From Oligoflexales bacterium (GTDB lineage Bacteria; Myxococcota_A; UBA9042; DTJE01), in contig DUVQ01000103.1 in the NCBI GenBank assembly GCA_012840965.1, forward strand, positions 291-64,290: 64,000 nucleotides of DNA. The letters run 5' to 3'. The position numbers and the translations under genes were made by a program. Shown here in pieces: positions 1-53,800 of this stretch (position 1 is its first letter; the number at the start of each line of letters is the position of its first letter). The notes beneath the pieces are model-generated. The model did not search any database and had not been told where the DNA came from. It saw only the letters and a program-made list of their open reading frames with translations.

Positions 1-996
1 CATGCCCGGGAAGACGGCGGTGATTAGGTGCTTGAAGTCTCGGGGTAGGGGGGCGGTGATTTCTAGCCTTTGTCCGGTTATTGGGTGGGTGAAAGCCACG
101 GACCAGGCGTGCAGTGCGTGACGCGTCATCTGCCTTAGGCTGGCTGCCTCGGACTCTGGCCTGCTACCAGGCCTTGGATAGGCCCGCCCATAAACTCGAT
201 CTCCGATTATCGGATGCCCAAGCTCCGATAGATGCACTCGAATCTGATGAGTACGCCCAGTCAGCGGCTGAGCCACCACAAGTGCAACCAAACTGGTTCG
301 CGCCAAGGTCTCATAACGGGTTATAGCCTTGCGATTAGAACTGACCTTACCAGTGAACTGACGCCTGTCACCTGGTCGACGCCCAAAATCAGACACGATC
401 TCTCCATGATCTGCGATAGAAGGCCCCAAAACCACAGCCAGATACTTTTTGTCTACCTGTCGATCTTTGAATTGCCTAGCCAAACCCTCATGCACTGCAT
501 TACTTTTCGCAATCAGGATGACCCCGGAAGTCTCTTTGTCTAGGCGATGAACCAAACCAGGACGGTCCGGCCCACCAAGCGTTGAAAAAGTCCGCCCACT
601 TGCAATTAACTGATTCACCAAGGTTCCTGACTGGTTACCCGCACCAGGATGAACCACTAAACCAGGCCTTTTGTTTAACGCCAGAATATCGCCGTCTTCA
701 TAAATGATATTTAGCTCGCCAGCAGACGGCGTCAATTCCCTTTTCGCAGGCGCCTCAGGGATCGACACCTTTACAGTCATGCCAGCCGCCACGCGATAAC
801 CACGCGCACGTTTGCGGCCATCTACAAGCACCCGATCAGCCTCGATCAATTTCTGGGCAGTCGACCTGGAAATCGATGGCACCAAGGCAGCCACACACAT
901 GTCAAGCCGCCAACCAGCGTGGGCTTCCCCAATCAGAAATTGCTCCTCTTGAAACTTGCTTTCGCTGATTTGTGCTTGCTGGACACCGGTTTCCAT
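1..996 (-). CDS. rluD: RluA/RluD-family pseudouridine synthase (3' end runs off the window; absent from the ORF track)
   Basis: Manual translation from ATG 996: N-terminal S4-like region (GWRLDMCV..SRSTAQKLI..V.VDG), NKRPGLVVHPG, catalytic HRLDKETSG, TGRTHQIRVH, GHPIIGD.VYG, HALHA, APLPRDF. No stop before base 1. Confidence 0.9.
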   Translation of the reverse strand, partial: METGVQQAQISESKFQEEQFLIGEAHAGWRLDMCVAALVPSISRSTAQKLIEADRVLVDGRKRARGYRVAAGMTVKVSIPEAPAKRELTPSAGELNIIYEDGDILALNKRPGLVVHPGAGNQSGTLVNQLIASGRTFSTLGGPDRPGLVHRLDKETSGVILIAKSNAVHEGLARQFKDRQVDKKYLAVVLGPSIADHGEIVSDFGRRPGDRRQFTGKVSSNRKAITRYETLARTSLVALVVAQPLTGRTHQIRVHLSELGHPIIGDRVYGRAYPRPGSRPESEAASLRQMTRHALHAWSVAFTHPITGQRLEITAPLPRDFKHLITAVFPGM

Positions 997-1034
997 TGCA
1001 GTTTCACTCGAAAATAAGGAAGATAGTGGGGTTT

Positions 1035-4000
1035 ATGAGCGAGGTCAAGTACCTGGTGCGTTCCCGAACACTTGCTAAGTTTCAAGCCTGCTTCCTGCTG
1101 GTTGCGCTTTCAACCGTCCTGAGTTGTGAGTCAGGGCCAGCCCTCAAGAAAAACTTGGAGGCCTGCCAAGAAGACTATGAATGCGCCTCAAACCTTTGTC
1201 TCCAGGGGCTTTGTGGCGACCCTCAAGCTGACCCAGACTACGATGGAATCCCAACGATTGTCGAGCTAAGGCTCGGACTTGACCCATTAAACCCTGATAC
1301 AGATTCAGATCAAATCCCAGACGGCATTGAAGTTGGCCCAGACTTTAACAACCCCATCGACACAGATGGCGACGGGATTATTGACGCCCTTGAAAGCAAC
1401 ATAAACGACGCTGATGGCGACTGCGTTCCTGATGTATTTGACCCCAGAAACGATATCCCAGATGCAACCGATGAAGAAGTGGCGCTTTTTGGATGTTCGA
1501 GGGTGGGCGTTTGCGGGGCCGACCCATTTGGCAAGCGGGCTACCTGCGCAGACGGGGTAGCGCTGTGCGACTATGAGCTGGTCGCCGGATACAGGCCTGC
1601 CCCTGAAGACCTCTGTGATGGCTTGGACAATGACTGCAATGGATTGACTGATGAAGGCTTCAACCTTGAGGGCATCCCAATTGGCCTGCCTTGCTTAGGC
1701 TTGGGAAGCTGTGGTGCCGGCACAGTGGAATGCGCAGACGACCAGGTTTCTACCAGGTGCTCAAGCAACCCGGGCGGCTCCCAAGACCAGTCAACACCTG
1801 AAACCTGTAACGGGCTTGACGACGATTGCGACGGAGAGACTGACAACAACCTGTTTTTGGCGGGAGTTCCCCTTGGCGGGTACTGCAAAGGCAGAGGCCA
1901 GTGTGGCATAGGGGTTGTTGAATGTGATGAGGACGGCGGGTTAAGATGCTCCACCAATCCAGGCGGCTCCCAAGACCAGTCAAAACCCGAGGTGTGTAAC
2001 GGACTTGACGACGACTGCAATGGCCAAACTGACGATGGGGTAGTGTGGGACGCTGAATCCGACCCATGCCGCACTCCAATGGGAATTTGTGCCTTATATC
2101 CTGAAAATGTGGTCCCAAGATGCTGGTTTGGCAAACCTTGGTGCGATTATTCCGATGTCCCAGGTTACAACGGTTTAGAGGAAGCCTTTTGTGACAACAT
2201 CGATAACAATTGCGATGGCTTGACTGATGAATCTCCAGCTTTTGCCTATGACGATCCCGTGCTTGGAACTCGCTTCATCGGCCAATCATGCGGCGCTGGG
2301 GCGTGTGTTGGGGGTACCGTCGTTTGCTCAGATGACGGCTTGGCTGGAAGTTGCTCATCCCTGAATTTGGGCTCCGATGAAATCTGCAACGGCCTTGATG
2401 ACAACTGTAATGGCCTAATTGACGAGGGATTGGCCAAAGTTTTCAGTGAGTTGTCTGTGGTTGCCCAAGAGCCCAATGTCAGGTTTGGAGCTGGCATGGT
2501 AGCAGTTGAGTCCGAGCTGTATGTCTATGGAGGGGCCCCAGCGGATAATATGCCCAATGATATCCGAGTGGTTTATGACGATTTGTGGCGCTTTGACGGT
2601 ACTGCTCGCCGTTTTTCATCGTTGGAATCCACAGGTCCAGGCCCAAGATTCCAGCCAATCCTCGTGCACTCTCCTGAAGTTGAAGAAGGCACTAGTGGGC
2701 AGTTGATTCTCTTGGGTGGCCATTTCCCCGCCTCGCACCAGGCGCTTCCTATTTGGACCTACGACTTGGAACAGCGGTCGTGGTCAGCTTCAGAGCTGGA
2801 GTTAGAGCAGGCCGACATGGTGGCCGCTGGCATTGCCAATGGGCATTTGTGGGTCTTAAGTGCAGGATCGTCGTGTCAGCTGACCAAAATCGACATGGCT
2901 ATCACTAGGCATGTTTGTGAAGAACAGGAAATTCCTGAACTTGATGGAGTTGTTGGGACTTTTGTCGGCCCATCTGAAGGTGGTGAGCCAGCTGGATTTA
3001 TGCTCTACGGACTTTCAAGGGAAGCAAAAGATGAGGATATTCAACCTCAGATGTGGTTCATTCCTTTGGAGGGGCAGCCTTGGGAGATTTCCGCCTTGCC
3101 GCTAGTGTCTCCAGAGCAACTGCCACGGCGCCTCAAGCCTTCACTGGCAGTTTTACCTGACCGCTCACTGTTGCTGATAGGTGGGACTAACACAAGCGGC
3201 CTTTTGGCGACTGATATGTTGCGCGTTAGGTTCAATGCTGACGAGCTGAGCGTTGGCAGGGCCCCTTCCATTTCGGGTGGGATATCTCTGCAATTGCCGT
3301 CTGTTGCCTCCAATCAGAATGGCGCCTATTTGTATGGAGGTCAGACCGTTTCTGGTCAAGGGTTCAGGCAAGTCCAACGCTTTGATATTGTTGATAATGA
3401 GTGGAAATCTTTGCTGCTGACTAGGCTTCCTCCAGGTCGAGTCGATGCCTCTATGTTTTCGCTTCGTGGTGGGCGTCTTGCGTATCTATTTGGCGGCTGG
3501 ACCACCGACGCGAGTGGTAGGCGGGCTTTGGCAGATATTTGGTCTTGGTCGGTGGATGACTTTACTTTCCAACCAGTTGCCTTGGTTAACAGCTCTGCAC
3601 CGGTTTTTATCAAGGGTGCGTTGGCTGTCGACGAAGGTGCAGGCATCATTTATCTGCATGGTGGCCTTCAAGCGCCTGTTGGGGTGATTGGTGGAATATC
3701 CAATACATTCGCCAGATTTATTCCGTCTCCTCGCGATTTTGAAGTCATTGGGTCAGGGCCAGGGGCGCGTTATAACCATTCCATGACCTGGACCCCTGGA
3801 GGGCTTTTGCTGTATGGCGGTCATAATGGCGAAAGAGTTCTTGGGGATATGTGGCGCTGGACAAGTGAAAACGGTTGGCAAAGGGAAATAAGTGATCCAA
3901 GGCCAAGTCAGAAGCACCAAGCGTTCTGGGATCAGGATGGTCAGCGCCTGATAGTGGTGGGAGGCCAGCCACGGGGTGAAGTAGTGGCTTGGTCATCTGG

Positions 4001-4277
4001 TAAGTGGGAGGTCCTGTCATCAGATTATCCAGCCAAGGGAAATTCAATCTTTGTTGACGAGGATTCGAACGGCTGTCTTGTGGTTGACCATGATGGAGCG
4101 ACTTCTTTTCTAAGTTTTGAAACCTGGGAAGCAGTCCCATTACCAGACATGTCGCTGCTTCCCTTCGGGGCAGGAGCATACAACCAAGTAACGAGGCAAT
4201 TCCTGTACTACAGCGGGGGATCCTCCCAGCCATTAGCAATATCAATCACACAAACTTGCCCAGAATCGCTGCCGTAA
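1035..4277 (+). CDS. Secreted lipoprotein with Ca-binding DxDxDG repeats, MopE-type Cys-rich metal-binding repeats and a C-terminal Kelch-like beta-propeller
   Basis: Start moved to ATG 1035 because the ORF-track start overlaps rluD. Lipobox TVLSC; DPDYDG/DTDGDG/DADGDC; about five E.CNGLD[DN]DC.G.[TI]D units; later LYVYGG, LILLGG, AYLYGG, YLFGG, LLLYGG Kelch-like blades. Confidence 0.75.
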   Translation: MSEVKYLVRSRTLAKFQACFLLVALSTVLSCESGPALKKNLEACQEDYECASNLCLQGLCGDPQADPDYDGIPTIVELRLGLDPLNPDTDSDQIPDGIEVGPDFNNPIDTDGDGIIDALESNINDADGDCVPDVFDPRNDIPDATDEEVALFGCSRVGVCGADPFGKRATCADGVALCDYELVAGYRPAPEDLCDGLDNDCNGLTDEGFNLEGIPIGLPCLGLGSCGAGTVECADDQVSTRCSSNPGGSQDQSTPETCNGLDDDCDGETDNNLFLAGVPLGGYCKGRGQCGIGVVECDEDGGLRCSTNPGGSQDQSKPEVCNGLDDDCNGQTDDGVVWDAESDPCRTPMGICALYPENVVPRCWFGKPWCDYSDVPGYNGLEEAFCDNIDNNCDGLTDESPAFAYDDPVLGTRFIGQSCGAGACVGGTVVCSDDGLAGSCSSLNLGSDEICNGLDDNCNGLIDEGLAKVFSELSVVAQEPNVRFGAGMVAVESELYVYGGAPADNMPNDIRVVYDDLWRFDGTARRFSSLESTGPGPRFQPILVHSPEVEEGTSGQLILLGGHFPASHQALPIWTYDLEQRSWSASELELEQADMVAAGIANGHLWVLSAGSSCQLTKIDMAITRHVCEEQEIPELDGVVGTFVGPSEGGEPAGFMLYGLSREAKDEDIQPQMWFIPLEGQPWEISALPLVSPEQLPRRLKPSLAVLPDRSLLLIGGTNTSGLLATDMLRVRFNADELSVGRAPSISGGISLQLPSVASNQNGAYLYGGQTVSGQGFRQVQRFDIVDNEWKSLLLTRLPPGRVDASMFSLRGGRLAYLFGGWTTDASGRRALADIWSWSVDDFTFQPVALVNSSAPVFIKGALAVDEGAGIIYLHGGLQAPVGVIGGISNTFARFIPSPRDFEVIGSGPGARYNHSMTWTPGGLLLYGGHNGERVLGDMWRWTSENGWQREISDPRPSQKHQAFWDQDGQRLIVVGGQPRGEVVAWSSGKWEVLSSDYPAKGNSIFVDEDSNGCLVVDHDGATSFLSFETWEAVPLPDMSLLPFGAGAYNQVTRQFLYYSGGSSQPLAISITQTCPESLP
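1767..2018 (+). repeat. Internal duplication (189-nt / 63-aa period) in the lipoprotein gene
   Basis: aacccgggcggctcccaagaccagtcaacacctgaaacctgtaacgggcttgacgacgattgc at 1767 recurs as aatccaggcggctcccaagaccagtcaaaacccgaggtgtgtaacggacttgacgacgactgc at 1956. Confidence 0.85.
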
Positions 4278-27547: not shown

Positions 27548-29419
27548 ATGAGAAAGCTAATTTCACAACTTTGTCTCTGGTTTGCCCTTTGCCTGGTCGG
27601 GTTGTTACCGGCTGCTAACACCAAAGCTCAATCCTCGGAGATTATCGCTGTCTTCGAGATTGAAAGGCGGGGAGTTCCTTTAAAAGCAGCCACGATGGCG
27701 AATCTAAACGACTACATGTATGGTCGTTTGGCATTTGCTGGTTTCAAACTCACCCCCCAAAGTCAAGTTCGAGAGCGCGTTGTCAGTCTCAAACGTGAGT
27801 CCCGCAAAGACTGTTATGACCAATCCTGCCAAATCGAACTTGGCAAGGCTGTATCCGCCCACAAATCATTATCCAGCCGGCTGATTAAAATTGGCGATGT
27901 GTGCTCGTTACAATCACAGATATACGACCTCAAAACAGAAACCACCGAAATGGGGGCCGAGGCGAAAGGCCCCTGCACTGAAAAGGGTATAGCGGCCTCC
28001 ATCGACCAAGTCGTTGCCATATTCAAAGGCGGCGTTGTAGCGCCAGCACAGCCAGTTCAAGATTTGGACAAAGGCGGTGGTTCAGCCAAGATCACCAGCT
28101 CGCCGTCTGGAGCCGAAGTGTGGCTCAACGATGAATTCATAGGCATAACACCCCATATAATCCCTGAAAAGCCGTCCGGTACCTACAAATTACGCCTTGA
28201 ATTACCCGACTATGTCTCCAACGAAGCGACTTTGGTGATCAAGAAGGGTAAAGAGACCATACATCACCGAGAATTGGCCTCTAATTGGGGAAAAATCAGC
28301 ATTTCAAGCTCCCCCACCGGCGCCACGGTTTATCTGGACGATGTACTGGTGCCAAATCTAACAACTCCCTGTGTTTTGGACCGCGTCGCTCCCGGAGTAC
28401 ACGTCGTCAAGTTTTTCCTTGCCGGCCACAGCGAGGGCACAGCAAGGACAAGCGTCATTCGCGGCAAGACAGCGTCAGTAGCAGCAAAACTAGAACCAAT
28501 GTGCGGTCGTTTGGTAGTGTCGTCCAGCTACGGCGGCGGCAGTAAGTGCGAAGGCAATCTAAAGATCGACGGCCAAATTGTAGGCCGCACTCCCTGGCAA
28601 GGAGACGTCTCAGCCGGCTCCCACACAGTCGAGGTACAGTGCCAAAACGGCAAGGCCAGCCAACAGGTTACAGTCGCGCACAATGGTCGTTCAGAGCTGA
28701 ACATTTTGATTGAAACCTGTCCTGGTGACTGGTGTTTGATTCCCGGTGGTAGTTCTAATATGGGGTCTAATGATGGCGATGATGACGAAAAGCCAGTTCA
28801 TCGAGTAACTGTACGAACGTTTGAAATGACAAAGACTCAGGTGACGGTCGAGCAGTACAAAGCTTGTGTTGATGCTGGTGTCTGCACAGCTCCTGATACT
28901 GGGGATTATTGTAACTGGGGCCAATCTGATCGTGGCAAGCATCCTATAAACTGCGTTGATTGGCACCAAGCTCAAGCCTATGCTAAGTGGGCTGGTGGTC
29001 GTTTACCCACAGAGGCAGAATGGGAGTACGCAGCCCGCAGTGGTGGTCGTGATTGGAAGTATCCTTGGGGCAATGAAAATGCTACTTGTGAGCGTGCTGT
29101 AATGTACGATGGTGATTTGGGTTGCGGCCGTGAAAGTACCTGGCCAGTTTGCAGCAAGCCGAGAGGCAACACTACTCACGGCTTGTGCGATATGGCAGGC
29201 AATGTTTGGGAGTGGGTTCAGGATTGGTACCATGACAGTTACAAAGGTGCACCAACTGATGGCTCAGCTTGGGAAAAGCCGACAGGCTCTAGCCGGGTTG
29301 ATCGCGGCGGTTCCTGGGGCAACGGCGCCGGGAGCGTGCGGGCGGCGATTCGCAACCACGCCTCGCCCGGCTACCGCCACGACACCCTCGGGTTTCGCCT
29401 TGCCAGAGATTCGCTGTAG
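27548..29419 (+). CDS. Secreted PEGA x2 + FGE-sulfatase (SUMF1/CLec-fold) protein, paralog 1
   Basis: Signal peptide; two PEGA domains (SSPSGAEVWLND, SSPTGATVYLDD); MGS..E.P.H.V, GRLPTEAEWEYAAR, DMAGNVWEWVQDWY, RGGSW...GFRLAR. Confidence 0.92.
   Translation: MRKLISQLCLWFALCLVGLLPAANTKAQSSEIIAVFEIERRGVPLKAATMANLNDYMYGRLAFAGFKLTPQSQVRERVVSLKRESRKDCYDQSCQIELGKAVSAHKSLSSRLIKIGDVCSLQSQIYDLKTETTEMGAEAKGPCTEKGIAASIDQVVAIFKGGVVAPAQPVQDLDKGGGSAKITSSPSGAEVWLNDEFIGITPHIIPEKPSGTYKLRLELPDYVSNEATLVIKKGKETIHHRELASNWGKISISSSPTGATVYLDDVLVPNLTTPCVLDRVAPGVHVVKFFLAGHSEGTARTSVIRGKTASVAAKLEPMCGRLVVSSSYGGGSKCEGNLKIDGQIVGRTPWQGDVSAGSHTVEVQCQNGKASQQVTVAHNGRSELNILIETCPGDWCLIPGGSSNMGSNDGDDDEKPVHRVTVRTFEMTKTQVTVEQYKACVDAGVCTAPDTGDYCNWGQSDRGKHPINCVDWHQAQAYAKWAGGRLPTEAEWEYAARSGGRDWKYPWGNENATCERAVMYDGDLGCGRESTWPVCSKPRGNTTHGLCDMAGNVWEWVQDWYHDSYKGAPTDGSAWEKPTGSSRVDRGGSWGNGAGSVRAAIRNHASPGYRHDTLGFRLARDSL
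29294..29407 (+). other. Candidate DGR variable region (VR)
   Basis: Abrupt shift to GC-rich codons. All 11 codons at positions where DGR templates carry AAC end in C, and they differ from AAC only at the A positions. Confidence 0.6.
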
Positions 29420-30130
29420 AACGGTAAAGAGTTGGGAATGAAAGAGTCCTACGATGAAGGTTTAGCGAGCCACATCGGCCCCGAGTCATGCGGGTATGAT
29501 GGTAACGTCATATTCGAAGCGTTGACAGGGGGAAATGCAGGCAGGGTATTGAGCCTCGAAATGGGCGGAATAGTTCTGAGCGCCGACGTACTCCGCGCAT
29601 ACGGAAGGCAACACTGGATACACCGCAAACGCGAGGTGTAACCGGGCTCGGCGGGGTCCTAGACCCCTTGCATGCATGGAAACTCTTTACACGGGATGCA
29701 GGAGGTCCCGGTCTTTGTCCACCGAGAGATTGCGCGGTGGACGGCACGGAAAACCCGTAAGGGGTACAGCCGTGAGGTACGAGACCGGGAAGTCGGACAG
29801 TTTCATAGTACCGGAGAATCACATGAACAAAGCAGCAACAGCATTGGAGGGAGCACAACGGGGGGAAGGACTTAGCCGGACATCCGCAGTTCCTGAACCG
29901 ACGTCAAAGGCTGTGGCGGAGTGTGAGGAGGGAAGGGAACTGGCCAAGGGGAATCCGGTAGGGCAATACAGGGACTGGACACAGAGCCGGTTCACCCTGC
30001 AAAGAGCGCTCGACTGGATACGGCAGGCCGCAAGTCTGCGCGTCTGACCCAAGGCAGGAGCCCGGTGCGGTAGTTCCGCACGCCGGGATCTGTGCGGGGG
30101 GTGGCCCGTAAGGGCCATTCCTACCGCGAC
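29408..30130 (+). mobile_element. ORF-less (RT-deleted) group II intron, IIB-like, 723 nt
   Basis: Domain V GAGCCCGGTGCGGTAGTTCCGCACGCCGGGATC at 30058 (AGC triad, AC bulge); domain VI ending CCTACCGCGAC with bulged A at -8; domain I-type blocks (GAAGGTTTAGCGAGCCACATCGGCCCCGAGTCATGCG, GGGAAGTCGGAC..ATAGTACC); only the N-terminal stub of the intron ORF remains (..GKSDSFIVPE..ELAKGN..TQSR..ALDWIRQAA-SLRV*). The 5' boundary is inferred. Confidence 0.88.
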
Positions 30131-30153
30131 TCGGTGCGCTAGATCCTTGGTCT

Positions 30154-30210
30154 GCGCCCCTGTTGGCCAGGCGACAGCGCAGCGTAGGCGCCAATGGCCA
30201 ACAGGGGCGC
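30154..30210. other. Long GC-rich stem-loop just downstream of the intron / reconstituted stop codon
   Basis: Perfect 16-bp inverted repeat GCGCCCCTGTTGGCCA (30154-30169) / TGGCCAACAGGGGCGC (30195-30210), with further GGCG/CGCC pairing inside the loop. Confidence 0.8.
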
Positions 30211-30405
30211 CCGGAGTTGCGCGTCAGCAGCTTGAGGTCGGATTTTTTTGCCTCCCCCCCATCACCATTGCGAAACCGCGTGTTTGAGAAAACAGTTCCG
30301 AGATTCTTGTTTCGACGGGCACAGGAGCAGCGCCAGCGCGGGTTTCCCTGTTGACGTTTGAGGGGGGTTATGGTAGCCAATTGCTGTCTGTGATTGGGGT
30401 ATGCC

Positions 30406-31350
30406 GTGAAGCGTGTTTTTGAGTTTGTCCTGTTTCTGGTTGCTGTTTTCTATTCTGGCTCGGTTTTTAGTCAGGCTGCCGCTGTTGACATTGAATGGGT
30501 GCGGATTCCAGGTGGTAGTTTTATAATGGGCTCCAGTGGCAAGGACGCTGAAGAAGACGAAACTCCCGCTCATAAAGTAAACGTCCCAGAATTTGAAATG
30601 AGCAAAACTCTAGTAACCCTTGATCAGTATAAGGCCTGCGTCGATGCAGGTGTGTGCGAGACCCCGGATACTGAAGAAGGCTGTAATTGGGGAAAATCAG
30701 ATCGCGGAAACCATCCCATAAATTGCGTCGACTGGGAGCAAGCTCAAGCCTTTGCCACTTGGGCTGGAGGTCGTTTGCCCAGCGAGGCTGAATGGGAGTA
30801 TGCGGCTCGAAGCGCCACCCGTGGCTGGAAGCATCCTTGGGGGAATAAACGAGCAAATTGTTCGCTGGCCGTAATGACGGAATCAAGTAAACGACAAGGC
30901 TGTGGCAATGACGGCACTTGGCCTGTTTGCAGCAAGCCAAAAGGCAACACAGCTCAAGGGTTATGCGATATGGCCGGCAATGTAATGGAGTGGGTCCGGG
31001 ATTGGTATTACTACGGCTACAAAGGTGCCCCAAAGGATGGTTCAGCCAGGGAGGTAAAGGGAAGCCCATACAAGGTTTGTCGCGGCGGCTTCTGGGGTGG
31101 CCACGCCAGGAACATGCAAGCAGCTGTTCGTGTATACTACCCACCAGAGTTTCGCGAAAACTTCATAGGCTTCCGCATCGCTAGACCTGTGCCAGCCAAA
31201 CATCCCGAGCCTAGAGATAAATTGGACGGCGATCTTGGACCGGACAGCGATGTTAGCCCGGACAGCAATGTTAGACCTGTGCCACCTAGTCCCCAGGATT
31301 TTGCCCCTAAAAACCAATCCAAGAAAATGTTTGAAACTTTCATAAAATGA
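30406..31350 (+). CDS. Secreted FGE-sulfatase (SUMF1/CLec-fold) protein, paralog 2
   Basis: GTG start by alignment with paralog 3 (VKRVFEFV / MKRVFQFV); GRLPSEAEWEYAAR, DMAGNVMEW, RGGFW..GFRIAR; Pro/Asp-rich tail. Confidence 0.9.
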   Translation: MKRVFEFVLFLVAVFYSGSVFSQAAAVDIEWVRIPGGSFIMGSSGKDAEEDETPAHKVNVPEFEMSKTLVTLDQYKACVDAGVCETPDTEEGCNWGKSDRGNHPINCVDWEQAQAFATWAGGRLPSEAEWEYAARSATRGWKHPWGNKRANCSLAVMTESSKRQGCGNDGTWPVCSKPKGNTAQGLCDMAGNVMEWVRDWYYYGYKGAPKDGSAREVKGSPYKVCRGGFWGGHARNMQAAVRVYYPPEFRENFIGFRIARPVPAKHPEPRDKLDGDLGPDSDVSPDSNVRPVPPSPQDFAPKNQSKKMFETFIK

Positions 31351-31369
31351 AAGTATCCTACATTTTATG
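31331..31369 (+). promoter_or_regulatory. Putative sigma70 promoter and inverted-repeat operator of the AbiE operon
   Basis: TTGAAA-17-TATCCT ending 8 nt before the ATG; interlocked IRs ACTTTCAT/ATGAAAGT and CATAAAATG/CATTTTATG, the latter covering the start codon. Confidence 0.6.
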
Positions 31370-32017
31370 CAGACGCTTACCGAAAAAATCCTGCAAGCCG
31401 ACCTTGGAAAGAGGGTCATTTTTCATAATCAGGTTGCAAGACTCGTAACCGGCTCTGACCAGCGGCGTTATAACTTGGTCAATCGCGCCCTCAACAGCGG
31501 TGAGCTGGTGTGGCTGCGGCGCGGGCTGTACATGCTTTCACCGAAAATCACCGGTTTCACGCCGCACCGGTTTGTGATTGCACAAGCTATTGTCCCAGGC
31601 TCCTTTGTAAGTATGGAAACAGCCCTTTCATGGCATGGATTAATCCCAGAACAAGTTCATTCAGTCCTATCAATGGTTCCCGGGCCTCGCTTGTTGGAAG
31701 TTGACCACGACCTGGTCGGACATTTTCAATTCCTACCAAGCGCCTTGGTCAAAGGCCAGTTTTTACAGATGGTTGACAGGCACCAATTCGGCCCTCAATT
31801 TGCCCTCGTCGCATCCCCAATCAGGGCAGTAACAGACATTATCTACATCAAAAAGCTACAACCACAGGATATGGAGCATTTATTCGACTTTTTGCGCATC
31901 GACCGCCATGATTTTCCAAAAATCTCGAAAGCAACCTGGAACATCTTGGCCAACACCTACCAACACTCAAGAATGGTCAAATGCATAAGAGCCCTACAAC
32001 TGGAGCTGCAGCCATGA
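31367..32017 (+). CDS. abiEi: Type IV TA AbiEi-family antitoxin
   Basis: wHTH-like N-terminus (LVWLRRGLY), PGSFVSMETALSWHGLIPE, ASPIRAVTD.IY; ATGA overlap with the toxin gene. Confidence 0.85.
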   Translation: MQTLTEKILQADLGKRVIFHNQVARLVTGSDQRRYNLVNRALNSGELVWLRRGLYMLSPKITGFTPHRFVIAQAIVPGSFVSMETALSWHGLIPEQVHSVLSMVPGPRLLEVDHDLVGHFQFLPSALVKGQFLQMVDRHQFGPQFALVASPIRAVTDIIYIKKLQPQDMEHLFDFLRIDRHDFPKISKATWNILANTYQHSRMVKCIRALQLELQP

Positions 32018-32877
32018 TTAACTTAATTAGACAAAAGCTAGAAAGTTATAAAGTTACCGATATTGAAACCGAAAAACAGGCGCTAAAGGAAATCCTGCAG
32101 TCAATCACTTTGTACGCACTATGGCGGGTGGATTTCTTTGAAATTGCCGCATTTCAAGGAGACACCAGTCTGCGCATCTTGCATGCACTGCCCAGGTTTT
32201 CAGAAGACCTGGATTTTATAACGAAAACTCCTGATCCAACATTTACATGGGAAGCCTACTCTCAAAATTTGCTGGATGTTTTGGCCGAATATAACGTTGC
32301 ATGCCAATTTGTTCACAGGCCAAACGATACAAGACCAGTGAAAGAGGCCTTCATCAAAGACGATTCAATTACCAGCCAGCTTGAGTTTAGCTTCATGGAT
32401 ACTGGGCGGCGTGGCCTTTTAAAGGTGAAGTTAGAGGTAGACACAAATCCTCCAATTGGTTCAAACTGGGATTACCGATTTTTGGATTTTCCGTTGGATT
32501 TCGAAGTCTGCACACAGGATTTATCATCCAACTTTGCACTCAAGCTACATGCACTACTATGCCGGCCCTATGTAAAGGGGCGCGACTGGTTCGACTTTGG
32601 CTGGTACTGCAGGTTTCAGGTCAAGCCAAACATGGTTTTACTGGAAAACGCCATCAACCAATATGGACCATGGAAGAACAAAGATGAAAAAATCAATGAA
32701 GTTTGGCTGTTAAACAAGCTGGCAGAACGAATCAGAGCAATCAATTGGAATGAAGCAGTTTTGGACGTCACCCCCTTTGTAGCACCCATCGAACGCCCCA
32801 GTCTAAAGCTATGGAGCCAGGGTTTCTTTTTGGAAAAGCTGGCAACACTGGAACAGACCCTGGAGTCGCCAAGGTGA
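32014..32877 (+). CDS. abiEii: Type IV TA AbiEii nucleotidyltransferase toxin (GG motif altered to GD)
   Basis: AFQGDTSLRILHALPRFSEDLDF, KVKLEVDTNPP, FALKLHALLCR, KGRDWFD. Confidence 0.9.
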   Translation: MINLIRQKLESYKVTDIETEKQALKEILQSITLYALWRVDFFEIAAFQGDTSLRILHALPRFSEDLDFITKTPDPTFTWEAYSQNLLDVLAEYNVACQFVHRPNDTRPVKEAFIKDDSITSQLEFSFMDTGRRGLLKVKLEVDTNPPIGSNWDYRFLDFPLDFEVCTQDLSSNFALKLHALLCRPYVKGRDWFDFGWYCRFQVKPNMVLLENAINQYGPWKNKDEKINEVWLLNKLAERIRAINWNEAVLDVTPFVAPIERPSLKLWSQGFFLEKLATLEQTLESPR

Positions 32878-32904
32878 CGGCCAGCCGGTTGTGAGCTAAT
32901 GTGG

Positions 32905-33000
32905 GGGCAGGAACAGGTACAGGACCAGGGGCAGGGACAGGATCAGGGACAGGATCAGGATCAGGGACAGAACCAGGACCAGGATCAGGCACAAGAACCG
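32905..33000. repeat. Tandem array of 16 degenerate GNNCAG hexamers
   Basis: gggcag gaacag gtacag gaccag gggcag ggacag gatcag ggacag gatcag gatcag ggacag aaccag gaccag gatcag gcacaa gaaccg. Confidence 0.9.
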
Positions 33001-33097
33001 CACAAGCCTCAAGAACTAGGCGGGGCCGGCCGTTTCTGTGTTGACGGCCCATGGTGGTTGTGATAACCAACTCTTTGTCCTCAATTGGGACCATGCA

Positions 33098-33871
33098 ATG
33101 AAGCGCGTTTTCCAGTTTGTCATTCTCGGACTCGTCCTCTCCCTATCTAGTCCCGTCCTCAGCCAGTCCAAGCCCGTCGACATTCAGTGGGTCAGGATTC
33201 CTGGCGGCAGCTTCATCATGGGCTCCACCGATAATGTCGCTGACGCCGACGAAAAAGCCGTCCATCCAGTAAAGGTACCAACCTTTGAAATCAGTAAAAC
33301 CGAGGTCACCGTCAATCAATACATGGCCTGTGTCGTCGCCGGTGCCTGCACCGCGCCCAACACCGGAGATGACTGCAATTGGGGCAAGTCCGGCCGCGGA
33401 AATCACCCCATCAATTGCGTCGATTGGCAGCAGGCTCAAGTATTCGCAAACTGGGCTGGAGGCCGCTTACCCACCGAAGCTGAATGGGAGTACGCAGCTC
33501 GCAGCGGCGGTCGTGACTGGAAATACCCCTGGGGCAATGAAGAAGCAACGTGCGCCCTCGCTGTAAAAGGCGGTTGTGGCCACACCAGCACAACCCCAGT
33601 TTGCGGCCTGGAAGAAGGCAACACCTCCCAAGGCTTGTGTGACATGGCCGGCAACGTCTGGGAGTGGGTCCAGGATTGGTATCACGACAGCTACAAAGAC
33701 GCCCCCAACGATGGCTCTGCCTGGGTATCACCCCCAGGCACTCACCGGGTTGTACGCGGTGGCGCTTACCGCCTAGGCGCCCAATTTGTACGCTCGGCCA
33801 AACGCGGCATCAGCTTGCCCAGCACCCGCGACGACGATTTAGGCTTCCGCCTCGCCAAATCCGTGCGCTAG
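33098..33871 (+). CDS. Secreted FGE-sulfatase (SUMF1/CLec-fold) protein, paralog 3
   Basis: Signal peptide; GRLPTEAEWEYAARSGGRDWKYPWG, DMAGNVWEWVQDWY, RGG...GFRLAKSVR*. Confidence 0.92.
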   Translation: MKRVFQFVILGLVLSLSSPVLSQSKPVDIQWVRIPGGSFIMGSTDNVADADEKAVHPVKVPTFEISKTEVTVNQYMACVVAGACTAPNTGDDCNWGKSGRGNHPINCVDWQQAQVFANWAGGRLPTEAEWEYAARSGGRDWKYPWGNEEATCALAVKGGCGHTSTTPVCGLEEGNTSQGLCDMAGNVWEWVQDWYHDSYKDAPNDGSAWVSPPGTHRVVRGGAYRLGAQFVRSAKRGISLPSTRDDDLGFRLAKSVR

Positions 33872-34487: not shown

Positions 34488-34578
34488 GGAGAGATGACCG
34501 AGCTGGCCGAAGGTGCACGACTGGAAATCGTGTGCAGGTTTACCCCTGCCGGGGGTTCGAATCCCCCTCTCTCCGCCA
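34488..34578 (+). tRNA. tRNA-Ser(GGA)
   Basis: GGAGAGA/TCTCTCC acceptor stem, anticodon loop CT-GGA-AA, long variable arm, GGTTCGAATCC, encoded CCA. Confidence 0.97.
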
Positions 34579-34593
34579 TTTTTTCACGAACCT

Positions 34594-34683
34594 GGAGAGC
34601 TGGCCGAGAGGTCGAAGGCAGCTGACTCGAAATCAGCCGTGGGTGTATGCTCACCGGGGGTTCGAATCCCTCGCTCTCCGCCA
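34594..34683 (+). tRNA. tRNA-Ser(CGA)
   Basis: GGAGAGC/GCTCTCC acceptor stem, anticodon loop CT-CGA-AA, long variable arm, GGTTCGAATCC, encoded CCA. Confidence 0.97.
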
Positions 34684-34793: not shown

Positions 34794-35651
34794 ATGAAAA
34801 GAAATGTCGTTGTGGCCGGCACATTTTATGAGTCAGACCCGAAGAAGCTGAAGAAATACTTAAAAAACCTACTTTCCACATCCTCTTTGACGCTTGATGA
34901 GCACGAAAAAGAACCGCTTGCCGTCATGGTTCCACACGCAGGTTACAGTTTTTGTGGCAAGGTACTGTCCGACATTTATCAAGGCATTAAAGTCCCCAAT
35001 CGCGTGATTATTTTGGCCCCAAACCACACTGGACTTGGACAGGCTGTGTCTGTATCGCCGGCCGCATGTTTTGAGACTCCCATTGGGAATATTAAAAATG
35101 ATAAAGAAATTGGGAGGTTATTGGTTGAAACAGGCCCCTTTGTTTGGGACGAACTAGCCCACCTTCAGGAGCATGCCATCGAGGTGCACCTGCCGCTGCT
35201 TTTGACAAAAAATCCAAAGGTTAAAGTCACAGCCGTTTGTCTGCGGACCAACGGTTTCCAGGCATGCGAGGAAATGGGTAACAAGCTTGCTGCTGTACTG
35301 GCGTCGATTTCCGAGCCTGTGTTATTGATTGCCAGCTCTGATATGAACCACCATGAACCCTGTAACGTGGCGCTGCGCAAGGATAGAATGGCGCTTGACA
35401 GGATTTCAGATATTGACCCAAGGGGGTTATTCACCGCCGTTGTTGAACACAACGTCTCCATGTGCGGTCTGGTCCCAATGGTGGTCGTCCTTGTGGCCGC
35501 AAAGGCTCAAGGCGCCAAGCACGCTAGGGTGGTCTCCTACTGCACAAGCGGCGATCACAACGGCGACATGTCCAGCGTAGTAGGCTATGCCGGGGTTATC
35601 GTATCAAAAGGAGCACAGGACGGAGACAGACCCAAGCTTGTTTCGATGTAG
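34794..35651 (+). CDS. AmmeMemoRadiSam protein B (MEMO1 family), stand-alone
   Basis: VAGTFY, PHAGYSFCG, APNHTG, EHAIEVHLP, ASSDMNH, SMCG, Y.TSGD..VVGYA. Confidence 0.92.
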   Translation: MKRNVVVAGTFYESDPKKLKKYLKNLLSTSSLTLDEHEKEPLAVMVPHAGYSFCGKVLSDIYQGIKVPNRVIILAPNHTGLGQAVSVSPAACFETPIGNIKNDKEIGRLLVETGPFVWDELAHLQEHAIEVHLPLLLTKNPKVKVTAVCLRTNGFQACEEMGNKLAAVLASISEPVLLIASSDMNHHEPCNVALRKDRMALDRISDIDPRGLFTAVVEHNVSMCGLVPMVVVLVAAKAQGAKHARVVSYCTSGDHNGDMSSVVGYAGVIVSKGAQDGDRPKLVSM

Positions 35652-35693
35652 GCCCAGGGGCAGGCTCAGGGACAGGCTCAGGGACGGGGACAG
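35652..35693. repeat. Seven GNNCAG-type hexamers
   Basis: gcccag gggcag gctcag ggacag gctcag ggacgg ggacag. Confidence 0.85.
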
Positions 35694-39579: not shown

Positions 39580-39666
39580 GGGCTGGGACTGGGACAGGTG
39601 TGGGGGCGGGGTCAGGGTGAAGGGTGAAGAGAACAGGGACAGGGACGGGGGCAGGGACAGGATCAG
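39580..39666. repeat. G-rich hexamer tract left of dispersed element B
   Basis: gggctg ggactg ggacag ... ggacag ggacgg gggcag ggacag gatcag. Confidence 0.8.
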
Positions 39667-39732
39667 GGGGATGATTGTGCTGATCTGCAGGATTTGGAGC
39701 TAAAAGGACGTCGAGAGGGCACCCTGCAACAT

Positions 39733-39836
39733 GGTCCGAAAGGATGCCCCCGGACATGTTTTTAAACTGCAACGAAGAGATAAAACGCAAAAAAGAACAA
39801 ACAATCGTAAGCCTGAACATGCAACTTGGCAGGATC
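39733..39836 (-). repeat. 104-nt dispersed non-coding element, copy B
   Basis: Reverse complement aligns without gaps with 4294-4397 (89/104 identical). Confidence 0.85.
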
Positions 39837-39843
39837 TGTAGTT

Positions 39844-39911
39844 GGGCAGGGGCGGGGGCAGGCCCAGGATCAGGCTCAGAGCCGGGGCCAGGCAAACGGG
39901 GACAAGAACAG
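39844..39911. repeat. G-rich hexamer tract right of dispersed element B
   Basis: gggcag gggcgg gggcag gcccag gatcag gctcag agccgg ggccag. Confidence 0.8.
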
Positions 39912-47832: not shown

Positions 47833-50800
47833 ATGGACTTCAACGAACTGCTTTCCGAACTTGAAAGTAATCCTCAAGATGGTAGTGGCTTGGAAAAAAC
47901 CTTGTTGCAATTGATAGACGAGGGGAATCTGAGCGAGCTTGAATCTTTGCTGGGTAATTTGGTGCCTTCCTTACAGGCGGGCCAAGCGGGCGATACCGCA
48001 TTGAAGGTCCTAGAACAGATCTTCAGACGCAACCGAGAAAGTGATGCAGGTCAGATACTTGCTTGGTGGGGTGGATGGCTGGCATGGAAGGTGATTGACG
48101 ACCCCATGAGGGCTGAGTCGTTTTTCAAGCATTTGACATCTGCTGGCGACAACCAGATCGAGCTCGATGAGTTCTATCGTGTCTTTTATGCCTCCAGAGG
48201 TAACTGGCTGCGCTTGGAGCAGTACGTTGGCGAAGCCTGTGACCGTCGGGGCGTCGATGCCACTGAGGCGAAGCGGATTTTGGCCAAAACAGCCCAGGAG
48301 TTTGACAATCCTTCCAAGGAGTTGTCCTACTGGCAGGCCGTTGTTGGGGCAGAGCCCAACGATGAAGAGGCAGACGCGCAGTTGGAGCGGTTGTACACGC
48401 AGATGGGGCGCTGGCCGTCTCTGGCTGATTTGTTGAAAGGGCGCTTGGGCCGCCTTGGGGACGATGAAGTTCAACTTAAGGTCAGTATCTTGCGTGGGAT
48501 GCTGACGATCTATGAAGACAAGATGAAGGCTGAGCCAAGGGTTTTGGCGACCTACCAGCAGATTCTTGATATTGACCCCACCAATATCGACGCTATTGAC
48601 GCGCTTTTGGAGCGCTATGAAAAGTCCGCTAGATGGCCTGATTACGTCAAGACTTTGGCCAAGAAAATTGACGCCGTTTCTGATAAAGCCGAAAAGATAG
48701 CGCTGTTGGAACACCGGGCAAACATGATGGAAACTCGGTTTTCCAATGTTGCTGAGGCGTTGAAGATTTATGAGCGAATTCTGGAGCTGGCCCCTGATCG
48801 TCGTGACGTTGTTGAAAAACTGAAAGACCTGTACGAAAGACGCCGTGATTTCGAAAGTTTGATTCGTTTGCGTCGTGTTGAGGCCGAGCAGACCACCGAT
48901 TTGGATGAGCGCGTCAAAGTGTTCGCGGAATTGGCGAAAACTGCCAGTGACAGCCTTCGGAAGCCTCCGTTGGCGATTGAGCTGTGGGAAAAGGTTCTTG
49001 AGATTGACCCGGTTCATATGGAGGGTTTGAGGGAACTGGATGGCCTTTATGAAAGGGAGAAGGACTACGATCAGCAGTGTGGTGTGTTGTCTCGGCTGAT
49101 TGACCTGTCCCACGATGAAGACGAGCAGGTTACGCTGCTTGAAAAATTGGCTGGGATTCAGGGAAGCCGCCTGAATGATGCGTCTTCGGCTTTGGAGTCT
49201 TGGCGCAGAATTTTGGACGTTCGCGAAAATCACGACAGGGCAAAGCGAGAGCTGCGGTCGCGCTATTTGGCTGAAGAGCGTTTTGAGGACCTCGAAGTTT
49301 TCATGCGCAGGTTCGCCACTGTTGAAGAGCTGGGGCGTACGCTGGAATCTCAGATCTCTGGAATTGAAGACGAAGAAAAGAAGCTGTGGCTGCTGTTTAA
49401 GGTTGCCGAGATTTGGCGTGACGAGACCAATCAGCCTCAAAAGGCGGTCAGGCACCTGGAAACCGTCTTGGGTGTAGACCCCAGAAACCTTCGAGCTGCT
49501 ACTGAACTGATTGAGCTTAATCGCCAGCTCGGTGATTGGCGCAAGCTTCCTGCGGTTTATGAAGTTGCGATTGCCGAAACGGCTGATCCTGGCGAGCGCA
49601 CACGTTTGATGCTGCAGGCAGCACAGGTGTACGAGGTTAATCTGGCCAATCTGGAGCGGGCATTCTTCTGGTATTTGCAGGCGTTCAAGGAGAATCTGCT
49701 TGATGACTCGCTGCGAGCCCAAGCTGAGCGCCTTGCAGGGCCTTCTGATAACTGGGACATCTTTGTAATCGTTCTTGAAGGGGCTGCACGGCAGATTCCC
49801 GATGAAAATCGGCAGGTTGCGACTTGGTTACGAGTAGGCCAGATTTATTCGGAGGAGCTGAACGAAGGTGACGCTGCCCAGGCGGCATTCCAAGAAGCGC
49901 TGACGCTGGATCCTGAAAACCGTTTGGCAGTTAATGCCCTTGATGACCTGTATCGCAAGATGGAACGCTGGCCAGAGCTGGTGACCGTTCTTGAGCGGCG
50001 TTTGTCGATTGAACGCAGGGCCAAGGAGCGCCAGATTCTGCGCTTTGATATCGCTCAAATCCTTTACCACTCTTTGAATCGTGCCGATGACGCGATTTCG
50101 GTTTATGAAGACATTTTGGCTGAGGACCCGCAGGAGGTTAGAGCTTTTGCGGCCCTTGGTGACCTTTTGTTGGCCGAAGAGAAGTTTGCCGCTCTGAAGG
50201 AGCTTTTAGAGCGACAAATCAACGTGTTTACGGCCCTGGAAAGGCCGCATCCGGCGATTTTGGCTGACTTGCATTGCCGTGTGGCGACCTTGTCTTGTGT
50301 GCTTGAAGGGGCGACGGCAAGTGCGACTGAGTCTTGTGCCATGGCACTGGAGTATGACCCGCAGCACGCAGAGGCCATCAGCCTTCTTGAAAGTCTGCTA
50401 GGTGAAAAGGACCTGCGAATTGATATCGTGAATCTGCTGCGCAAGCCATACGAGTTGGCGAAGCGCTGGCAGGACTTGGCAGATTTGCTGGAAATCGAGT
50501 TGGCGGAGATTGGTGATACCGCTACTTCGGCTGAAACCCTTTGGCGCTTGGAAGGCCTTTATCGCGACAACGCCGTCGATGCAGACAAGCGCTTTAGGAC
50601 GTTGTCCCGCATTCTTAAGGTGACTCCTGAAGATAGCCGCTCTTGGGATGCTATTGAACGTGTCGCGGGCGAAGTGGATGGCTGGCGTGAGGTAGCTTCG
50701 TTGTACGAAGCCGCCGCGTACGACATTCAGGATTCTGAGGCTCAGGTCCAGATAAATCTGCGCCTCGCCAGGATTGAATGGCAGGAACTGAACAACATCG

Positions 50801-53800
50801 ACCACGCACGTCGGGCTTATCACGATGTGTTGGCAAATGACGAAACTAACGTTGATGCCTTGGACGCCTTGGAAACCATCTACGAAGAGATTGGTGACCA
50901 CCCAGAGCTGCTCAAGATCTACCAGCGGCGTTTCGATGTCTCTCCATATCCAGGTGAGCAGATTGCCTATGCCTTCAAAATTGCTGATGAACAGGCGCAG
51001 CACCTGGAAAACATCGAGGGGGCAATTGAGGCTGTAAAGAAGGTCTTGGATATTGAACCAGATTCTGAAATGGCTTACCGACGCTTGGATGGTCTGTACT
51101 TCAAGGCCGAGCGTTGGTATGACTTGGCCTCTGTCCTAGAACAGCGAATTGTCCTCGCGCAGGAGCTGTCGGATCGCAGTTATCTGCGCCTGCGTCTGGC
51201 TGAAGTCTATGAATACCGCCTGGAAGATGTTCCTGGTGCGGTTGAAGTTTTCAGCCTGATTTTAGGTGAGGATTCGGCAAATGAAGACGCGCTTCGCGAG
51301 TTGGAGCGTTTGTTTGCGAATGAAGACGTTCGCGTCAGCGTGGCCAAGATCCTGCTGCCAGCCTACAAGGTCCAGGAAAACTTTGTGAAGCTGGTTGAGG
51401 TTTATGATGTTCTGGCTGGGGCTGAAGGCGACACTGAAGTCAGACTGTCATATTTCGCGACTATCGCCGAGATTTATGAAAACAAAATCCAAGACTTGGA
51501 TAAGGCCTTCGAGTACAGGGCCAAGGCTTTCCGCGAAATGCCCGACCGAGAAGAGCTGCTTAATCAAGTACTTAGAGTTGGCGAGGCCAAGGGCGCTCTT
51601 GATGATGCGATCTTTGTTCTTATCGAATTGGTCTTTGACATCAGTGATCCTGAGCGTAGAAAGGAAACTCACAGAGTTATCGCCAGCGTGTGTCGGGACA
51701 AGGGGATTGATCGCGAGCTATCCAAGCGACATTACACCGAAATTCTTGGGCTCGACCCCGAGGATATGGACGCTATCGACTCCTTGATTAGCCTGCGCGA
51801 TGAGGATGGCGAAGTTGACATCCTGGTCTCGTTGCTTGTCAGAAAGGCCGAGATAGTGATGGAGCCCGAACGCAGAGCTGGATTGCTGCTGTGGGCTGGT
51901 GATCTGTACTCTCAGAAGCTGGAAAAACCGGAAGATGCTATCGCCAGCTACACCGAAGTGCTGGACATGGATCCTGCCAACGGTCATGCCATTCTTGCCT
52001 TGGAGGCTTTGTATGAGCAAAGCGAAGAATGGATGGAGTTGGTCGAAGTTTTGGGCAGAAAGGCCGATGTTGCAAACACGCCGCAGGAACGCGTTGCAGC
52101 CCTGAAAAAACAAGGACTTATTCAGCACGAGCGCTTGGATGCTTCTATCGACGCTATCGAGACCTTCTTGGTAGTGCTTAGCGTTGATGGCGAAGATGTG
52201 GACGCCATGCGCACTTTGGACCGCTTCTATGGGTCGGTTGAGGATTGGACCAGTCAGTACGACATCCTTGCCAAAATCTATGAGCGTGTTGAAGGTGAAG
52301 ACAGGCTTACGATGCGCTTTAGAATGGGGCGCTTGCTTGAGCAAAACCTTGGCGATCCCTACAAAGCCATTGAAATCTATCGTGATTTGTTGGCTGAGTT
52401 CCCCGATAACGTGGAAGCTGTCGACGCCTTGGAAGGCATGGTTCGTGCTGGGGATGCGGCTGAGCCTGCATTTGCGGTCCTCAAGCCCATTTTGGCCAAT
52501 AGAGCCGAATGGCAGCGGCTGTATGTGAACTACGAGGTCCTGACCGAGCGCGAACACGACCCAGTTAGAAAGGTTGCAAACTTGGTGACCATGGGTGAAA
52601 TCGCCCAAAACCAGATGAATCAACCTATCAGTGGCTTTGAGTGCTTTGGCAAGGCGTTTACGACCGACCCACTGAATCGCGATGTACTGGGAAGGGTGTA
52701 CAGCTTGGCCGAAAGCTTCGATATGTGGCATGACGTGCCAGCTTTACTGCAAGAGGCCGCCGCCGAGATAGAGGGCATGCCTCAGGCGTTGGAGCTCTTG
52801 CTCCAGGCTGGAGCCGTCTTGCGTGACAGGCTTGAGAACCGTGAAGCCGCTATTGAAGTGTTTGAAAGTATCCTTAAGGACTTCTCGGACAACATGACCG
52901 CCTTGGACGCTTTGGATGAGCTGTACAGCGGACTTGAGAAGTGGGAAGACCAGATTCGTATCTTGCGCTTCAAGTACGACGTCAAGTTCGATCCAGAAGC
53001 GAAAATCCAAGTGTTGCTGCGACTGGCGGATGTTTGTGAATTCAAGGTCAATCGCACTCAGGACGCTCTTGAGGCCAGACAGGAGGCCTTGTATCTGCAT
53101 CCTGGTCAACCTCAGGCAGTGCTTGAACTTCGCCGCATGTTTGATGAAGGCAAACACCTGGATCAAATACTGGAAATCCTGGAGCCAATCTACCAGGAAT
53201 CCGGGGCATACTCAGATTTAGCAACCATTTACGAGGCGTCCTTAGTGGCGATCGAGGATCCTGACCGTCGCAAGGAAACTCTGCTTAAGCTTGCTGAAGT
53301 CTGGGCCCAGAACCTTGGTGAAGGGGTGACTGCTCTTGGCTGGTTTGGCAAGGCTTTGGAGCTTGATCCTGGTGACGAGATTCTGGAAATGCAGATTGAT
53401 GAGCTGGCTGCTTCAGTTTCGGCTTGGGAAAGCCTACTTTCCATTCAGCTGACGGCGGCACAGGCTTGTGACAACAACGAGCGCAAAATCGCTTTGTGGC
53501 ATAAGGCCGTTCAATCTGCCCGTGATCGCATTGGCGACTATGAAAAGGCTGAGGCCATTTGTAAGTGGATACTGGAGCTTAACGATTCTGATGCCTTGGC
53601 GTTGGCAGACCTGGATCGTATGTATCTGTCTCAAGGTCGAGACGCCGATTTACTGGCAATTTTGAAACGGGAAGTCGAAGTTGCGGAGTATGACGACGAC
53701 AAGATCAAGTTCTTGATGCGAGCTGGAACGCTGCAAAGGGATAAGCTTGATGATCTGGAAGGTGCGATTGAGTCGTTTGCCCATGTGGTCAGGATTGACG

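Follow-up and report, generated by a model that had tools for sequence, protein, structure and literature searches.

Does a gene that ends in the fingerprint of a diversity-generating retroelement (DGR) still diversify when the element itself is nowhere near it? The question is raised by a gene for a 623-aa protein (27548..29419, + strand) in a 64,000-nucleotide stretch of contig DUVQ01000103.1 (assembly GCA_012840965.1, Oligoflexales bacterium); the whole stretch is referred to here as the window. From the sequence alone, an initial annotation had taken the 3' end of this gene for the variable region (VR) of a remote DGR target that is being diversified by an element located elsewhere. We found that the region is a genuine VR and located both its template repeat (TR) and the DGR in the same genome. 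The VR also differs from the template at non-adenine positions, is represented by one dominant allele while paralogs carry many, and is cut off from the original gene end by a group II intron remnant. The gene is therefore most probably (we put this at roughly 0.7) a former remote target of an intact chromosomal DGR whose copy is now frozen, the cause being the intron, which splits the predicted initiation-of-mutagenic-homing (IMH) sequence.

A remote chromosomal DGR carries the matching template

The encoded protein, taken from the list of open reading frames (ORFs) and identical to record P0121, comprises a signal peptide, PEGA domains (PF08308, E 2.5e-26) and a C-terminal FGE-sulfatase domain with a C-type-lectin (CLec) fold (PF03781, E 1.1e-59, residues 394-620). 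The same protein is present on dozens of contigs out of numerous anaerobic-digester-type metagenomes and in metagenome-assembled genomes of Myxococcota, including a closed 3.2-Mb contig of genome GCA_050952305.1. The VR (residues 579-620) lies inside the C-terminal domain, a fold that tolerates variation. GC content is 0.71 in 29282-29407 versus 0.51 in the remainder of the gene. At third codon positions, T makes up 43% in the FGE-sulfatase domain (28712-29281), whereas the VR has C at 57% of them. This shift in codon endings had been noticed before and is borne out by the counts, as is the reported codon string (GGC AAC GGC GCC GGG AGC / GTG CGG GCG GCG / ATT CGC AAC CAC GCC TCG CCC GGC TAC CGC CAC GAC ACC / LGFRLAR), which is exact. 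The Pfam domains and the match to a TR likewise uphold the assignment of the C-terminus of a PEGA and FGE-sulfatase protein as a DGR-type VR.

One paralogous target sits immediately 5' of genes encoding HRDC, bAvd and RVT_1 reverse transcriptase (RT) proteins, and a TR of 125 nt follows just 3' of the RT gene, giving the order target-HRDC-Avd-RT-TR. The TR encodes TGSNRVNRGGSWNNNARNVRAANRNNDDPRNRNDNLGFRLA and is identical in five independent assemblies. Avd was recognized by bAvd PF22296 and by the curated DGR-Avd model NF033474 of NCBIfam (85.3 bits, cut-off 80). Identical RT, Avd and HRDC proteins, together with an exact copy of the TR, are found at ~303.7-304.9 kb of JBMNKS010000001.1 (3,204,074 bp). 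The window gene lies on the same contig at ~858-860 kb, ~554 kb from the cassette, and the VR thus shares a genome with a DGR RT and its Avd, as the initial annotation had supposed when it placed the DGR elsewhere. Its remark that no template or RT is nearby holds for all 64 kb: an ungapped scan of both strands at >=60% identity found no TR-like copy in the window besides the VR itself, and tblastn of RT, Avd and HRDC against it gave no match. What the remark missed is the intron remnant right after R620. Remote targets of HRDC-type chromosomal DGRs are already known (PMC5758913), and PEGA domains on DGR targets have been noted before (bioRxiv 10.1101/2020.04.01.020958).

The variable region differs from the resident template at non-adenine sites

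Ungapped alignment to the TR allele designated TR1 (L012:6274-6398; identical at L140:7015-7139) places the VR at 29282..29406 (+ strand, 125 nt of homology). The region had been recognized correctly as a DGR-type VR but delimited as 29294-29407; homology begins 12 nt earlier and adds adenine sites at S582 and D585. Of the 32 adenine sites, 16 are changed (9 to G, 5 to C and 2 to T), and those that differ range from 29292 to 29385. Changes at non-adenine sites amount to 10/93, 7 of them synonymous, so that adenine sites are clearly enriched (Fisher p = 1.1e-5). The template that had been reconstructed by eye (WNNNARNVRAANRNNNTPDNRNNNLGFR) comes close to the real one (WNNNARNVRAANRNNDDPRNRNDNLGFRLA), and the search proposed for a TR beside a DGR RT and Avd succeeded. 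The expectation that VR and TR would differ at adenines only survives in part: the 16 adenine-site changes are there, and so are the 10 others. An adenine bias alone is not fully specific, as the ordinary paralog at 33038-33871 differs from the TR at 22/32 adenine and 27/93 non-adenine sites; the distinguishing mark of the window VR is its 89% identity to the TR at non-adenine sites, versus 71% in that paralog.

Active paralogs present a different picture at these positions. Their VRs differ from the TR at 15-16/32 adenine sites and at only 0-3/93 others. A sister lineage carries another TR allele, TRB (...NNNLPGNRNDNV, where TR1 reads ...NNDDPRNRNDNL); there, the non-adenine mismatches of an intron-less VR number 1/93 against TRB and 8/93 against TR1, which indicates that active VRs track the resident TR. 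The window VR matches neither allele, with 10 non-adenine mismatches to TR1 and 8 to TRB. Repeats of inactivated DGRs are expected to gather non-adenine mutations (PMC3521204), and those of the window VR are what this expectation predicts. Judged from these alignments, 16/32 adenine and 10/93 non-adenine differences fit a former DGR target rather than one in current use.

A group II intron remnant splits the 3' end of the target

The nucleotides that follow R620 belong to an ORF-less group II intron remnant of 723 nt in sense orientation (GATTCG...GCGAC; 29408..30130, + strand), recognized by Rfam matches and by the paralog ending that its excision restores. It is inserted exactly between AGA (R620) and TCG GTG CGC TAG. 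Removing 29408-30130 recreates ...LGFRLARSVR* in frame together with the conserved flank, as found in intron-less paralogs. Domains D1-D4 (29443..29666, + strand) match the full model 1-225 of RF02005, group-II-D1D4-6, at 196.1 bits (gathering score 49). Putative domains V-VI (30056..30130, + strand) match the full model 1-77 of RF00029 at 37.0 bits (E 2.1e-5), just below the gathering score of 40; this match reaches the inferred 3' splice site, and the intron 3' end, ...CGAC, agrees with AY. In domain IV, a 74-aa stub in the ORF list (29823..30047, + strand) is all that remains where an RT/maturase would be encoded. From its position, we take it to be the N-terminus of the intron-encoded protein, with the RT/maturase deleted. 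A search with the stub for an intact intron-encoded protein returned only other short stubs and no full-length homolog. As a consequence of the insertion, the final 12 nt of the target gene (GAT TCG CTG TAG) are intron-derived and give the present DSL-stop tail.

The insertion point lies 1 nt past the end of TR/VR homology, inside the predicted IMH, a sequence assigned from where adenine mutagenesis and TR/VR homology stop. The 5' part of the predicted IMH (CTCGGGTTTCGCCTTGCCAGA; 29387..29407, + strand, from the alignments) still adjoins the VR; compared with CTTGGGTTCCGCCTCGCGAGG, the form common to the TR and active VRs, it has accumulated 4 synonymous changes and AGG>AGA. The original 3' exon TCG GTG CGC TAG (SVR-stop) is displaced to 30131..30142 (+ strand). 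It is the same as the final 12 nt of active targets L011, L012 and L013 and constitutes the portion of the predicted IMH that sets VR apart from TR.

Active targets end ...CGC CTC GCG AGG TCG GTG CGC TAG, followed by a GGGCC-CTTG-GGCCC hairpin and then by a long GC-rich inverted repeat; they share ...CGCCTCGCGAGG TCGGTGCGCTAG and both hairpins. In the window the two halves are separated by the 723-nt intron, the small hairpin is deleted, and no intact predicted IMH with its hairpin adjoins the VR. The long inverted repeat, present 3' of every DGR target in the lineage, was located at 30154..30210 by pairwise alignment and DNA folds (z -3.4 and -3.8), 746 nt from the window VR versus the usual ~50 nt. 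A T-run past the hairpin region (30240..30250, + strand) resembles a terminator at the end of the original transcription unit, and the same arrangement is seen behind active targets. For the DGR of Bordetella phage BPP-1, the IMH and an adjacent hairpin are necessary and sufficient for target recognition in homing (PMC3240598). Literature searches returned no report of a group II intron within a DGR IMH.

From these elements we propose the following course of events. The C-terminal CLec-fold VR would have been written in the past by adenine-mutagenic retrohoming, until a group II intron inserted between R620, the last TR-homologous codon, and TCG GTG CGC TAG; the intron would afterwards have lost its RT ORF. 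The insertion would have halved the predicted IMH and shifted the conserved hairpin ~0.7 kb away. If the BPP-1 requirement for IMH and hairpin applies by analogy to this DGR, and if the interrupted sequence functions as its IMH, DGR complementary DNA would therefore no longer integrate at the window VR. The VR would since have been inherited as ordinary sequence, drifting from the TR at non-adenine, mostly synonymous positions. The intron appears to remain unspliced, in which case the last three residues of the protein (DSL) and the stop codon come from the intron.

The window variable region is nearly invariant across populations

PEGA-FGE-sulfatase paralogs in the same organisms are represented by records that are near-identical except at the C-terminus, where they follow the pattern PTGS-x-RV-x-RGGSW-xxx-A-[RGW]-x-VRAA-x-R-xxxx-P-[RG]-x-R-xxx-LGFRLARSVR. 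Clusters of intron-less paralogs contain 11/12, 9/10 and 9/9 distinct VRs, versus 4/11 for the window gene; P0012, an intron-bearing target of the L135 lineage, is also nearly invariant (2/7). One dominant allele of the window VR recurs over ~40 contigs, without population hypervariability in the assemblies, and the gene with its flank and intron DNA is 100% identical in 10 assemblies from different samples. Metagenomes with this contig include ERZ27249274, ERZ27280800 and JGI 3300010346. Among the 11 protein variants of the cluster, 10 are not identical to the window protein, and 8/11 keep its exact VR; 3 variants with the exact VR differ from the window protein at other residues. A ninth variant has a single VR change, R610H, which is not of adenine type. 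Invariance alone is weak evidence, and it is the contrast with the paralogs that carries the argument. Together with the 10 non-adenine mismatches and the intron in the 3' recognition region, this contrast speaks against the ongoing diversification that had been proposed for the gene.

Three records were considered as intron-less counterparts of the window gene and rejected. P0127 and P0129 diverge from it from residue ~520 on, their C-terminal ~100 residues resembling those of paralogs, and look like paralog recombinants or chimeric assemblies. P0002, considered as an intron-less ortholog at the window locus, sits at a P0006-type locus instead.

A separate observation concerns the domain upstream of the VR. 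The FGE-sulfatase DNA just 5' of it (28808-29287) is ~100% identical to the paralog at another locus (L012:3606-4085), the N-terminal halves of the two genes being only ~70-78% identical, and this block is unusually rich in T at third codon positions (43%). The pattern suggests concerted evolution of the FGE-sulfatase domain among DGR targets by gene conversion, which may account for the chimeric-looking records P0127, P0129 and P0152.

The same intron recurs in other DGR targets

The same intron 5' sequence, after a DSL tail and at the same nucleotide, occurs in four other target alleles. The intron is thus carried, window included, by at least five target alleles at at least four loci in at least two lineages, and intron and DSL tail go together in all five alleles examined. 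For example, intron-bearing L134 is a P0006-type locus that is intron-less and variable in L011 and L154-157. Similarly, intron-bearing L137 is a P0016-type locus that is intron-less in L013. In another lineage, L135 has two tandem targets, both with the intron and with further internal deletions.

The 12 nt adjoining the intron differ among intron-bearing alleles, and these differing 5' flanks argue for independent insertions or long residence, not one recent gene-conversion event. The VRs of L135a and L137 fit TR1 well (2-3 non-adenine mismatches). The window VR and the intron-bearing VR of L134 both carry TCG CCC GGC TAC and CTC GGG TTT and differ at adenine sites, a combination that accords better with VRs that derive from an older TR allele and froze separately than with one recent gene conversion. 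The frozen window VR may thus also preserve an older TR allele. We tentatively suggest, as a possibility that this recurrence raises, that a group II intron lineage homes to the conserved 3' end (IMH) of DGR VRs and recurrently switches off targets, with the frozen VRs recording earlier TR states.

At L135 (7052-12073), D5-D6 and the 3' exon are deleted from the intron remnant of the two tandem PEGA-FGE targets, apparently between short CTGCGCGTCTG repeats. This locus resembles the DGR-adjacent region, and no HRDC-Avd-RT genes were found in the DNA examined around it.

Alternative explanations

Several observations weigh against a VR frozen by the intron. For this DGR, the position of the IMH comes from prediction and not from mapping. 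The intron 5' end reads GAUUCG in all five copies, versus canonical GUGYG. Two members of the window cluster, P0127 and P0129 (623 aa), carry other VRs with SVR-type tails. Diversity in the species is very low overall (0 differences over 10 contigs), intron-less targets, too, have individual VR alleles that are found repeatedly, on as many as 15 contigs, and variation was judged from consensus assemblies, where low-frequency variants stay hidden. Finally, 5 non-adenine positions of the window VR agree with neither known TR allele; its template may have been a third TR allele, and its diversification may have ceased for reasons unrelated to the intron.

This last point leads to the alternative that survives best, which we nevertheless regard as unlikely: the VR is frozen and the intron incidental. 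On this view, the latest writing of the VR would have used another TR allele, be it ancestral, of a related lineage or of a second DGR since lost, and the VR would have become incompatible later, as TR and IMH evolved or that element disappeared. TR alleles do differ by lineage (TR1 versus TRB), and the block common to the window and L134 VRs, with adenine-site differences on both sides, suggests a third template for both; 5 positions of the window VR agree with neither TR. A narrow scan of JGI metagenomes for a TR with the TCG CCN NGC NAC block, however, yielded a single match, in the TR of a high-GC DGR unrelated to this one (L147). The TR of another DGR from Myxococcota (RT P0199, Peptidase_S8-FGE target) was rejected as the source, as it fits worse, with 23 non-adenine mismatches. 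The intron-bearing VRs that fit TR1 (L135a and L137) and the constant association of intron and DSL tail also tell against an incidental role.

It is still less likely that the VR remains an active remote target and looks invariant through strong selection on one variant or because the population is clonal. An intact DGR is present in the genome and is clearly at work on other remote targets, and the first 20 nt of the predicted IMH still adjoin the VR; strong purifying selection may mimic inactivity, as pointed out by Roux et al., and some intron-less VR alleles likewise recur on many contigs. Each round of homing, however, would reset the non-adenine positions to TR1, of which 10/93 differ here versus 0-3 in active VRs. 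Moreover, 723 nt lie between the VR and the stretch by which IMH and IMH* can be told apart, as well as both downstream hairpins; the same VR is retained in strains that differ elsewhere in the protein, and in another lineage a further intron-bearing target shows just as little variation.

That the gene has no DGR link, its C-terminus resembling a VR by chance or local codon bias, can practically be dismissed: the RGGxW...R.A.R....P....GFR scaffold is common across the whole family, ordinary neighbouring paralogs also change more at TR-adenine positions (22/32 vs 27/93) and the paralog at 33038-33871 is C-rich at third codon positions too, but against this stand the higher identity to the TR at non-adenine sites (89% versus 71%), the ~100% identity to proven DGR targets up to the VR, and the original IMH tail and conserved DGR-target hairpin just past the intron.

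Relation to known systems

The DGR behind the window VR, with one of its targets probably frozen by the intron, is close to the elements of the Treponema denticola type (HRDC 'architecture C', lineage 4, with CLec/FGE-sulfatase targets such as TvpA). Both are chromosomal and not phage-linked, have an HRDC accessory gene with Avd and RT, and combine one TR with several targets of FGE-sulfatase fold, some >100 kb away (PMC5758913). They differ in that the order here is target-HRDC-Avd-RT-TR, with the TR 3' of the RT gene, that the targets carry PEGA domains and that the window target no longer behaves as a target. As in the BPP-1 DGR with its Mtd VR, the VR closes a CLec-fold gene at the 3' end, TR/VR differences are concentrated at adenines, the two repeats diverge at a GC-rich 3' element, and inverted repeats lie just 3' of active targets (PMC3240598). 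In contrast to BPP-1, the recognition elements in the window are parted from the VR by an intron, and in place of an 8-bp stem with a GRNA loop there are a 5-bp GGGCC stem and a ~20-bp stem with a presumed role in recognition.

Inactivated DGRs described in surveys such as DiGReF, with RT genes broken by stop codons, frameshifts or insertion sequence elements (PMC3521204), have likewise lost diversification and are predicted to gather non-adenine mutations. Here, in contrast, RT and Avd are intact, as is the TR, and other targets are active; the damage would concern one target only, on the target side, and would be due to an inserted retroelement. Bacterial group II introns of the ORF-less or degenerate kind resemble the window remnant in their D1-D4 and, probably, D5-D6 domains, in lying sense-oriented within a transcribed gene, in a precise insertion as judged against empty sites and in an intron-encoded protein that has undergone internal deletion. 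The window intron departs from them in its non-canonical 5' end, GAUUCG, and in its site, the 3' end of DGR VRs at several paralogous loci.

The usual practice is to score a DGR as a whole, as present or absent or as active or inactive. In this genome, regulation or decay acts on an individual target: the DGR is intact and busy on several PEGA-CLec surface proteins, and one target is locked into a single binding-site sequence. If the intron is the cause, the window gene would be a natural counterpart of the IMH/hairpin requirement of BPP-1 and a case in which a target site of one retroelement is put out of use by another. Frozen VRs could serve to trace back the evolution of a TR. In addition, a VR-like fingerprint alone does not equal ongoing hypermutation; non-adenine mismatches and the integrity of the 3' flank tell live targets from fossils.

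Other features of the DGR lineage and the window

In the sister lineage, a second, partial TR copy (the first ~75 nt, with one change) lies ~660-2000 nt 3' of the real TR (L150:9008, L151:7673, L152:7683 and L153:7685), and L139 has a similar truncated version in place of the TR. The partial copy may be a rearrangement scar or an assembly chimera.

Two more FGE-sulfatase genes follow just 3' of the target gene in the window (30394-31350 and 33038-33871), without PEGA domains and with ordinary diverged C-termini; the second, with its 27/93 non-adenine mismatches to the TR, still ends LGFRLAKSVR-stop. They may have been targets very long ago, or else be relatives without any history of diversification. 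Between them, 31367-32877 encodes an AbiEi-like / AbiEii (PF08843) type IV toxin-antitoxin pair, and in L013 and L001, too, AbiE pairs lie close to DGR targets. Intergenic stretches at 32899-33009, 35634-35690 and 39580-39900 contain imperfect repeats with a 6-nt period (GGGACAGGATCAGG-like), often just upstream or downstream of FGE-sulfatase genes, and similar runs lie behind targets in L011 and L013.

Farther from the target, an ORF of 1101 aa (972-4277) contains tandem cysteine-rich repeats of the type C-x-G-x-D-x-D-C-x-G-x-x-D-E (1605-2426), a motif typical of secreted myxobacterial proteins. Two adjoining tRNA-Ser genes with anticodons GGA and CGA are located at 34488-34683, and a very large ORF of 3584 aa extends over 47833-58587.

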